Source: a virus. From it: a DNA stretch of 64,000 bases. Of the stretch, positions 3,830 through 4,444 are shown piece by piece. Position numbers and translations under genes: made by a program. The stretch lies in IMG/VR virus record IMGVR_UViG_3300046010_015054, positions 1 through 64,000 of that record; one strand, given 5' to 3'. How positions within the stretch are numbered: position 1 is the first letter of the stretch; each line of letters begins with the position of its first letter. The notes under the pieces are model-generated. The model did no database searches and was not told the origin of the DNA. It saw only the letters and a list, made by a program, of their open reading frames with translations.

Positions 3830-3885
3830 ACAAAAGACTTATCCGGGGACGCTGTTCTTATGGGTAGCGTGATAAGTACTCTTTG
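3830..3885 (-). ncRNA. hairpin RNA C with CCAUAAGAAC loop
   Basis: ACTTATC/GATAAGT and ACGCT/AGCGT helices closing loop ACCCATAAGAAC. Confidence 0.6.
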
Positions 3886-3960
3886 TAGTCAGGACAGGAC
3901 TTGAACCTGTATCTGCCCCCGAATTTACGCGAGCGGTAGTTACCATTACACCACCTGACT
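3886..3960 (-). ncRNA. tRNA-like RNA 1 (AGTCAGG acceptor, irregular anticodon arm)
   Basis: AGTCAGG/CCTGACT-A, D-loop AATGGTA, T-arm ACAGG-TTCAAGT-CCTGT; no canonical 5-bp stem/7-nt loop anticodon arm. Confidence 0.8.
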
Positions 3961-3980
3961 ATGTTTCCCCACCTGAGATT

Positions 3981-4172
3981 ACAGTGAGTAGATATTCCCG
4001 GTTTTTCCTTTCAAAAACCCTGAGGATCTTACTCCTTGAAAACAGTCAACACTACTGGGAGGAGTTGTGTCGTTCTCCTTTATTCCCACGATGTCCCACT
4101 CGCGCCGTAGACATTCTGCGGGTCTATTGTTTAAGTCTTAGACCAAAGACTGTGAGTATCTCTTACTCATTG
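3981..4172 (-). ncRNA. putative multi-stem RNA D (~190 nt)
   Basis: Terminal helix CAATGAGTA..GATA/TATC.TACTCACTG; inner hairpins AGTCTT/AAGACT, TAGAC/GTCTA, GGTTTTT/AAAAACC. Confidence 0.6.
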
Positions 4173-4244
4173 TAGCGGGAGAAGGAATCGAACCTTCGGC
4201 CTTTGGGTTATGAGCCCAACGAGCTACCTCTGCTCTATCCCGCG
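4173..4244 (-). tRNA. initiator tRNA-fMet(CAT)
   Basis: C1 unpaired with position 72; GGG/CCC in anticodon stem TTGGG-CT-CAT-AA-CCCAA. Confidence 0.92.
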
Positions 4245-4251
4245 ATATAGG

Positions 4252-4354
4252 AAAGTGTTAACGAATTTAAAGCGTTCTTATGGTAGCTACCTATTCTATT
4301 CAAGTATATCGTACTCGATACTTCACTCTAGTAGGCCGGGTGGTTAACACCTTT
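4252..4354 (-). ncRNA. stem-closed RNA E with CCAUAAGAAC loop
   Basis: AAAG-GTGTTAAC/GTTAACAC-TTT closing helix, AAGTAT/ATACTT arm, AGC/GCT closing TACCATAAGAAC. Confidence 0.6.
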
Positions 4355-4355
4355 G

Positions 4356-4444
4356 TAGTCAGGACAGGATTCGAACCTGTACGAATGTTCCTTTCTCCGC
4401 AGACATAAAGTACAACGGTGCGTCTACCATTCCGCCACCTGACT
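4356..4444 (-). ncRNA. tRNA-like RNA 2 (AGTCAGG acceptor, Leu-type D-arm, irregular anticodon arm)
   Basis: AGTCAGG/CCTGACT-A, TGGCGGAATGGTAGACGC, T-arm ACAGG-TTCGAAT-CCTGT. Confidence 0.8.

Follow-up and report, generated by a model that had tools for sequence, protein, structure and literature searches.

Why should a phage tRNA array hold two genes with one and the same acceptor stem and T arm, and with unrelated sequence where the anticodon arm ought to be? The question is posed by the virus record IMGVR_UViG_3300046010_015054, which is 170,105 bp long and rated complete. Its first 64 kb (64,000 nt), referred to below as the window, carry both genes on the minus strand, and each is followed directly by a stem-closed partner RNA. 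We call them the AGUCAGG genes, after the first seven nucleotides of their RNAs. The answer that we consider probable is that these RNAs do not decode and instead act as carriers, that is, as tRNA frames in which an interchangeable RNA insert, or cargo, stands in place of the anticodon and variable arms. The four elements in question are the following.

3886–3960, minus strand: tRNA-frame RNA 1, 75 nt; AGUCAGG acceptor and T arm in common with RNA 2, class-I-like D arm
3830–3885, minus strand: loop-12 hairpin, directly 3′ of RNA 1; AGUAC base, two-part stem, GUC-UUUU tail
4356–4444, minus strand: tRNA-frame RNA 2, 89 nt; AGUCAGG acceptor, Leu-type 3-bp D stem, T arm, A73
4252–4355, minus strand: partner RNA 2, about 103 nt; long closing stem starting at the trailer AAAG

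Two tRNA frames with non-canonical middles

The original prediction, made from the letters of the window, held that the two minus-strand genes have their acceptor stem, T stem and CAAAG trailer in common, and direct reading of the sequence agrees. Both RNAs begin with AGUCAGG and end with CCUGACU-A, both have the T stem ACAGG/CCUGU, and both run on into CAAAG; the plus-strand 19-mer at 3881 and 4351 is exact and falls within repeat family D4. The anticodon regions, described in that prediction as unrelated and non-canonical, are indeed so. The middle of RNA 1 is a short 4-bp stem with an 8-nt loop in place of the 7-nt anticodon loop, and it has no U33 or purine-37 pattern. In RNA 2, a 38-nt insert with a loop of 10–12 nt replaces the anticodon and variable arms. 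ARAGORN reports 3885–3960 as a tRNA of unknown type with a four-base 'anticodon' and 4355–4444 as an off-register 'Ile tat'. The Rfam tRNA model (RF00005) scores the genes at 37.3 and 43 bits, which is above its gathering threshold of 29 bits and the lowest among the 14 tRNAs of the window. Both genes therefore reach a cloverleaf score, and both lack the 5-bp stem and 7-nt loop with U33, three-base anticodon and purine 37 of a canonical tRNA.

The frame is conserved in uncultivated phages

An 18-mer made up of the 3′ strand of the T arm, the 3′ strand of the acceptor and CAAAG matched 76 IMG/VR contigs of 4–308 kb, once in each. Using a covariance model built on the frame (R1, with a cut-off for membership of at least 51 bits), we found 158 copies across 93 fetched loci, with scores of 51–88 bits (fetched phage contig loci are labelled below by L-numbers, such as L068 or L125). 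RNA 2 scores 86.7 bits and RNA 1 73.2 bits, and they are the sole copies in their own genome; ordinary tRNAs score at most 47 bits. Both genes thus belong to the clade by their acceptor, A73, trailer C, T arm and R1 score, as well as by their variable insert.

The clade is held together by both structure and sequence. Within the frame, 99.7% of pair cells are paired and compensatory changes occur in 10 of the 15 pairs. The constant 5′ part consists of the acceptor and a D arm of the bacterial tRNA-Leu type, and the constant 3′ part of the T arm, acceptor and A73. The base after A73 is C in all 108 distinct copies (108/108) and is followed mostly by AAA(G), while position −1 is U in 89 of the 108. 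The D arm is closest to that of the phage's own tRNA-Leu(UAG), for which reason the frame clade most likely descends, on sequence comparison, from a phage tRNA-Leu.

Frame copies lie in phage tRNA arrays with up to 23 ordinary tRNAs; some have other non-coding RNAs (ncRNAs) on either side, and others end a few bases short of a start codon (L021, L013 and L019 are examples). The identical 25-nt 3′ end of the frame occurs in phages that have no neighbouring genes in common. ARAGORN mostly misses the clade copies or marks them '???'. A few members stand closer to ordinary tRNAs: in L032 (5911–5996) and L072 (1312–1397), an apparently normal tRNA-Ile(GAU) body carries the clade T arm, acceptor 3′ strand and CAAAG trailer, and one frame in L053 is called Leu(tag) by ARAGORN.

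When open reading frames (ORFs) around the 76 frame loci were clustered, no protein family linked to the frame emerged; no family was present in more than nine loci, and the families were ordinary phage genes. In 50,697 records of isolated phages, neither the frame nor the hairpin family described below is present, and the partial matches seen there are chance matches inside genes. Among GTDB genomes, the frame was found only on 17 contigs of metagenome-assembled genomes (MAGs), nine of which are labelled Bacteroidota. This is a weak pointer to Bacteroidota as the host, because phage contigs that have been binned into such genomes are weak evidence.

Two observations on individual contigs can be added. 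Frame-bearing phages pack many large ncRNAs near their tRNAs, as in L005, where 5677–6083, 7035–7258 and 7231–7637 hold a GOLLD RNA (288 bits), a group I intron and a transfer-messenger RNA (tmRNA). In L122 (4732–4974, minus strand), only the last 13 nt of the frame are present, right after the stop codon of a gene and before a loop-12 hairpin, and this remnant looks like a recombination or deletion scar.

Inserts vary between phages and are kept between relatives

The inserts that replace the anticodon and variable arms measure about 15–110 nt and form 92 sequence clusters in 108 copies. Because the homologues show hypervariable inserts, and not one conserved normal anticodon, the AGUCAGG RNAs are not simply decayed tRNAs, and the view of them as RNAs that imitate tRNAs without decoding, constant in the frame and free in the middle, already put forward in the original prediction, is borne out. 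Some insert classes are common to several phages, with compensatory changes. The insert of RNA 2 differs at one of its 38 nt from that in L068, a locus on a 171-kb contig from a related phage; the D loop, the leader and everything downstream differ between the two. Inserts fold somewhat better than shuffled sequences (mean z −0.68, n = 83), and some of them contain nested T-arm-like hairpins. A search for recurrent words found no 7-mer in six or more cargoes and modest excesses of 6-mers; a GUAAAU motif that had been suspected by eye is not enriched.

A hairpin family with a nearly invariant 12-nt loop

Folding gives a stem-closed RNA after each AGUCAGG gene, at 3830–3885 and 4252–4354, and each displays a 12-nt loop ending in CCAUAAGAAC, as had been claimed, with the qualification that the second loop is closed by 3 bp only. 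The loop of the 3830–3885 hairpin is ACCCAUAAGAAC at 3854–3865 (fold z-score −2.67), and that of partner RNA 2 is an internal loop, UACCAUAAGAAC, at 4274–4285. The exact 10-mer CCAUAAGAAC occurs in the window only at 3854–3863 and 4274–4283, and the longer form GCUACC(C)AUAAGAAC is confined to the same two sites in the whole 170-kb genome. The number of 10-mers in the window is not significant alone (five matches with at most one mismatch, 4.6 expected); that the loop is not random follows from the families found outside.

To collect these families we used a degenerate 18-nt pattern of three stem bases, the 12-nt loop and three further stem bases, which matched at least 120 viral contigs. The closing bases, which the pattern leaves free to be A or T, are complementary in 108 of 109 distinct contexts, and the loop recurs in the fetched loci on differing closing stems. 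Family members, defined by the loop N(A/C)CC(A/G)UAAGAAC on a covarying stem, have the consensus (A)GUAC, stem, 12-nt loop, stem, GUC, and then often a run of U; the loop U(A/C)CC(A/G)UAAGAAC is nearly invariant and the stem covaries. In an alignment of 29 short-form members, 91% of cells are paired, with 52 double-change cells versus 22 in shuffles, so that the covariation which the original prediction proposed to look for is present in hairpin and frame alike. The G–U pairs show that it is the sense RNA strand that folds. The hairpin at 3830–3885 is a typical member, which aligns with 43 others and has the family base, (A)GUAC on the 5′ side and GUC with a U-rich tail on the 3′ side (AGUAC ... 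GUCUUUUG). Partner RNA 2 does not have this base; it shares just the loop with the family, and no sequence homologue of it was found in the fetched loci.

The consensus and the U runs, with at least five U within 8 nt after GUC in 46 of 109 members, make the hairpin resemble a terminator with a fixed loop and base. A scan with the intrinsic-terminator consensus, in which loops are limited to 8 nt, made no call at 3830–3885, where the tail has four U and the array continues downstream. The genomic position of the family is characteristic. Fifty-six hairpins lie no more than 45 nt past the stop codon of an ORF of at least 60 aa. For at least 17 of these 56 upstream ORFs, which fall into three groups by sequence, the representatives tested are matches to the PHROG family of major head proteins; other ORFs before the hairpin match head maturation protease and terminase large subunit. 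The hairpin family is thus found mostly just after highly expressed late genes. Clustering of ORFs around 116 hairpin loci found no protein family linked to the hairpin (none in more than 18 loci, and these ordinary phage genes).

As a candidate antisense target of the loop, the phage's own genome has one exact complement, which lies within a coding sequence rather than at a start codon, and loop-complement counts in this genome are not above those of a reversed-pattern control. Some further ideas were discarded. A resemblance of the 12-nt loop to the tRNA-Leu(UAA) anticodon loop was dropped, since the phage's own tRNA-Leu(UAA) has A37 and not G37; suspected resemblances to ToxI and to rRNA loops found no support from any tool; and a kissing interaction of the 12-nt loop with the loop of the RNA 2 cargo, about 6 bp when drawn by eye, is lost in L068, whose partner loop differs.

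One subclass of the hairpin (L021, L031, L084, L122, L137, L190, L211 and L219) has a conserved word ending in AAUA(G/A)CCC(A/G)AGG 10–25 nt 3′ of the hairpin, and in L122, L211 and L219, where the fetched sequence extends further, this word runs on with CAUAAG. In this subclass, a longer RNA may have the hairpin as its 5′ portion.

The link between frame and hairpin is recurrent, not obligatory

The original prediction joined the tRNA-like RNA and the hairpin that follows it into a single module. The order of the two does recur, since L211 has a full frame and then the hairpin directly, as in the window. Moreover, in L125 (a full AGUCAGG frame, 67.1 bits) and L132, the 12-nt loop sits on a 5-bp stem at the exact position of the anticodon loop, with compensatory differences between the two loop-bearing copies. 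However, the hairpin is a family in its own right that stands mostly behind late protein genes, and what holds is a recurrent link that is not obligatory. In loci selected by the frame, the distance between a hairpin and the frame closest to it ranges from tens of nucleotides to about 870 nt, and loci selected by the hairpin contain 18 frames in 821 kb. A copy of RNA 2 in L068 is followed by a different RNA with a degenerate version of the loop. The best reading of these arrangements is that the 12-nt loop is a portable module, which can be mounted on 3′ hairpins, inside larger RNAs or on the tRNA frame. Besides the loop at the anticodon position, the L125 element (2779–2897, minus strand) has a second insertion, a small hairpin within the D loop.

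RNAs from the locus are present in RNA libraries

Many DNA runs from lake water contain the stretch, and metatranscriptomes contain parts of it. Contigs from four RNA libraries, belonging to four studies, were placed on positions 1600–6000. Among the unique non-coding stretches, near-identical RNA contigs cover 4252–4347 (a 98-nt contig with a depth of 101), 4252–4355 and 3941–4171, and a 271-nt metatranscriptome contig covers 4460–4730 without differences. Carry-over of DNA is an unlikely source of these contigs because the ORFs at 2776–3363 and 5275–5568 have approximately zero depth in the same RNA runs. The end of one RNA contig coincides with 4355, the nucleotide that directly follows A73 of RNA 2. 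Given that the frame is a repeat common to many phages, this end is just a weak hint of a 3′ cut.

A carrier model and its alternatives

The reading that we favor, with a probability of roughly 60%, is that the two AGUCAGG genes encode non-decoding, tRNA-Leu-derived carrier RNAs that display interchangeable cargo and are excised by tRNA-processing enzymes. The frame retains what the tRNA machinery of the cell recognizes, namely a 7-bp acceptor stacked on the T arm, the elbow formed by the D and T loops, A73, U at −1 and the C-A-A-A trailer. These are the features on which RNase P, the 3′ processing enzymes, the CCA-adding enzyme and tRNA folding rely; those that decoding requires have been lost. 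The array would be made as one long transcript, from which RNase P and an RNase Z-type 3′ endonuclease would excise the carriers in the same way as tRNAs. Excision would give the carriers defined ends and tRNA-like stability, and would also free the flanking RNAs, including the downstream hairpin. Each carrier would then show its own cargo, kept between related phages, where the anticodon and variable arms would otherwise be. The hairpin after the carrier belongs to a second, independent family of terminator-like 3′ ends, and its 12-nt loop is probably where a conserved factor, supplied from elsewhere, binds. What we infer in this model is the processing by RNase P and RNase Z, the stability of the carriers, and what cargo and loop bind. 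The suggestion in the original prediction that the tRNA-like part is a processing tag agrees with the RNA contigs and with the conservation of leader and trailer; the cutting itself is part of what is proposed.

Several observations weigh against this model. The sequence of the acceptor and T arm is near-invariant across phages with unrelated neighbors, which is beyond what processing needs; such freezing hints at a sequence-specific partner or at cassette exchange at the DNA level, and the remnant in L122 fits the latter. The structure of the cargo is just modestly above random, and in the fetched flanks neither RNA family has a protein family linked to it. A few frames have near-normal anticodon arms (L032 and L053), so some members may still decode. 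Finally, assembly breaks at the repeat that many phages have in common could account for the contig ends at 4347 and 4355 just as well.

If the frame rather than the insert were the active part, the RNAs could be decoys or sponges for factors that bind the top half of tRNA, such as tRNA-cleaving defence nucleases, modification enzymes, LeuRS or EF-Tu. Drift in the middle would then be unconstrained. The conservation in sequence of the acceptor, T arm, D arm and A73 across phages with unrelated neighbors fits this proposal, as does the hypervariable middle. Bacterial LeuRS does not read the anticodon, and leucine identity could therefore survive in the frame. We nevertheless think a decoy unlikely, because related phages keep inserts as long as 110 nt, with compensatory changes, and because a recognizable 12-nt loop module is mounted at the insert site in L125 and L132; a decoy for anticodon nucleases would, in addition, require a conserved anticodon loop. 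A different proposal, quite unlikely in our judgment, makes the elements pure punctuation, whose cutting by RNase P and RNase Z releases neighboring RNAs or mRNAs, as in mitochondrial transcripts, and whose cargo is functionless. It accounts for the conserved leader and trailer, for elements located between ncRNAs or just a few bases ahead of start codons (as in L021, L013 and L019), and for the contig that ends exactly at the predicted 3′ cut at 4355. However, a minimal tRNA would suffice for this purpose and ordinary tRNAs already punctuate the same arrays; the long, conserved and covarying cargo is left unexplained.

Exchange of DNA could also produce identity across unrelated genomes, if the invariant ends of the frame were recombination sites at which inserts are swapped. 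The 25-nt 3′ end common to phages without common neighboring genes, the 13-nt remnant that abuts a gene end in L122 and the Ile-tRNA-like bodies with the same frame 3′ end in L032 and L072 speak for such a cassette. On the other hand, G–U pairs and compensatory changes point to selection on the RNA fold of one strand, and no recombinase or nuclease is linked in the fetched flanks. We regard the cassette as a very unlikely explanation of the genes, although it is compatible with the carrier model and does not exclude it. That the genes are working tRNAs with enlarged anticodon loops, for example quadruplet or recoding decoders, is suggested by the four-base anticodon that ARAGORN assigns to the 8-nt loop of RNA 1 and by scores above the Rfam tRNA threshold for both genes. 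This is hard to believe of an RNA 1 loop with no U33 or purine 37 and an RNA 2 loop of 10–12 nt, in a family where the region spans 15–110 nt and has no common loop. Least credible of all is decay into tRNA pseudogenes. Although the two genes have the lowest tRNA scores in the array, 158 copies with 99.7% pairing and invariant tertiary-contact bases, cargo that is conserved between relatives, and RNAs that are present in RNA libraries are very far from what decay would yield.

The carrier model can be extended to a broader proposal, which we offer as a long shot. Uncultivated phages of lakes and other waters, for which the MAG labels hint at Bacteroidota, might run a modular RNA display system, in which a sequence-frozen tRNA-Leu frame presents interchangeable RNA ligands. 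The 12-nt loop would be a ligand common to the frame and to the 3′ ends of capsid mRNAs, where it would bind a conserved host or phage factor that controls the fate of late mRNAs or else dock on tRNA elbows. The loop includes UACC, the complement of the D-loop GGUA, and GAAC, the complement of the T-loop GUUC.

Relation to known RNAs

Rfam 15, searched at permissive thresholds, returns the generic tRNA family alone for the frame and nothing for the hairpin. Full-text literature searches with words from the frame sequence gave unrelated primer matches only, and a keyword search gave no description; a 2026 preprint on bacterial tRNA mimics concerns RNAs of different connectivity. The statement in the original prediction that this is not a described family therefore stands as far as sequence is concerned. 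It does not stand for the architecture, which is that of RNA1 and RNA2 of phage T5, with RNA C of T4 as a looser parallel. The RNAs of the window are real, widespread and absent from Rfam, and they are a variant of an old kind of phage RNA whose function here we infer.

In GenBank, T5 RNA1 and RNA2 are labelled 'tRNA-like stable RNA with unknown functions', and T4 rnaC and rnaD small stable RNAs; reviews and omics papers give the function of T4 RNA C and RNA D (species 1 and 2 RNAs) as unknown (PMC3014915, PMC9697503). Like the window RNAs, all four are encoded inside a phage tRNA cluster. T5 RNA1 resembles the frame in its Leu-type D arm, T arm and paired ends, and has an insert of about 70 nt at the site of the anticodon arm. 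T5 RNA2 has an almost identical T arm and a nested T-arm-like hairpin like that of some cargoes, and T4 RNA C, the looser parallel, has a large insert framed by paired ends and a T arm. These RNAs nevertheless fall outside the clade, with R1 scores of 11.9 bits (T5 RNA1), 19.1 bits (T5 RNA2) and 20.3 bits (T4 RNA C) versus 51–88 bits for members. The clade in turn differs from them in its invariant acceptor, leader and trailer, in its hypervariable modular cargo and in having been seen only in uncultivated phages. By these comparisons, the window RNAs and T5 RNA1/RNA2 or T4 RNA C are the same kind of RNA and different sequence families.

A close analogy comes from the laboratory. Ponchon and Dardel reportedly engineered a 'tRNA scaffold' for the expression of recombinant RNAs, in which, as in the frame clade, the anticodon arm is swapped for an arbitrary structured RNA while the frame ensures that the RNA folds, is processed by tRNA enzymes and is stable. 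Whereas the scaffold is a laboratory design, the clade would be its natural counterpart, with processing and stability as proposed above. tmRNA also has an acceptor and T arm that close a large non-tRNA insert. Unlike tmRNA, the frame RNAs have U:A and not G3:U70 at 3:70, have no tag reading frame and possess a full D arm; neither ARAGORN nor Rfam calls a tmRNA in the window.

The release of linked small RNAs by tRNA processing is familiar from the tRNA-miRNA units of murine gammaherpesvirus 68 and from mitochondrial tRNA punctuation. In the gammaherpesvirus 68 units, as in the window, a hairpin RNA directly follows a non-decoding tRNA-like RNA, and 3′ processing of the tRNA would free the hairpin. 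That virus is eukaryotic and its hairpins are those of miRNAs, whereas the hairpin of the window is terminator-like, has a fixed loop and also occurs without a tRNA-like neighbor. For the loop-12 family the histone mRNA 3′ stem-loop, which is bound by SLBP, offers an analogy only. It too is a 3′-end hairpin after highly expressed genes, with an invariant loop and base and a covarying stem; its sequence is unrelated and it comes from another domain of life.

These comparisons indicate that the T4 RNA C/D and T5 RNA1/2 type of design is widespread in uncultivated phages, in the form of a clade with a frozen frame and swappable inserts, and that, in many phages, capsid transcripts carry at their 3′ ends a loop module that is also found among the inserts. 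Frame and hairpin are two well-defined, covariation-supported RNA families new to Rfam, and the fixed loop on two different display frames is a concrete handle toward a binding partner. Current annotation pipelines miss such genes or label them odd tRNAs.

Other features of the array

The window has a G+C content of about 30%, and all ORFs of at least 250 aa are on its minus strand. Its genes include a family B DNA polymerase, a Cpn60-type chaperonin and a RuBisCO-like protein. ARAGORN and Rfam place 14 tRNA calls at 1760–5890, with ORF-free stretches between them; two of the calls are the AGUCAGG genes. The surroundings of these genes are as follows.

About 5250 to 3620, minus strand: tRNA/ncRNA array, holding both AGUCAGG genes
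4445–4745 (also delimited as 4449–4765), minus strand: ORF-free non-coding RNA of about 300 nt, between tRNA-Asn and RNA 2
4172–4244, minus strand: bacterial-type initiator tRNA-Met, between the two modules; called by ARAGORN and Rfam, with the C1×A72 mismatch read in the sequence
3961–4171, minus strand: 211-nt non-coding spacer RNA, between initiator tRNA-Met and RNA 1; RNA contigs present

The 4445–4745 RNA has a weak manA-like match in Rfam (27.8 bits, E = 2.6e-4). Directly before RNA 2 we noted by eye a small hairpin with a loop that repeats UAGUCAGGA. The spacer at 3961–4171 has homologues at 83% identity in L087, L053 and L019. Taken together, this spacer and the one at 3706–3829 (minus strand) have homologues at 81–85% in the phage contigs L087, L053 and L019 and L033, L022, L156, L120 and L121, and the two are probably further ncRNA families. 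A test for the Y RNA-like RNA YrlA (RF02553) gave a sole weak match of 26 bits (gathering score 69), which lies over ordinary tRNAs at 4794–4858.

A third tRNA-like element is located at 2487–2563 (minus strand). It has the acceptor UGGAGAA/UUCUCCA and a good T arm, without a recognizable D or anticodon arm, and scores 28.9 bits with the Rfam tRNA model, just under the threshold, and 20.2 bits with R1. In RNA run X15, depth peaks in the bin that contains this element. Upstream in the array, the 209-nt spacer 4903–5111 is conserved as a whole at 73–85% in L068, L078, L219, L074, L023 and others. Within it, 4947–5009 (minus strand) is a near-threshold match to the freshwater-1 RNA motif (68.3 bits versus a gathering score of 72), and L078 holds a freshwater-1 copy above the threshold. 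Upstream of each tRNA-Leu gene, at 5233–5254 and 5889–5910, lies a 22-nt box whose copies are 91% identical and adjoin an AT-rich word like ATATTTAT; this box is probably the promoter of the tRNA/ncRNA array.

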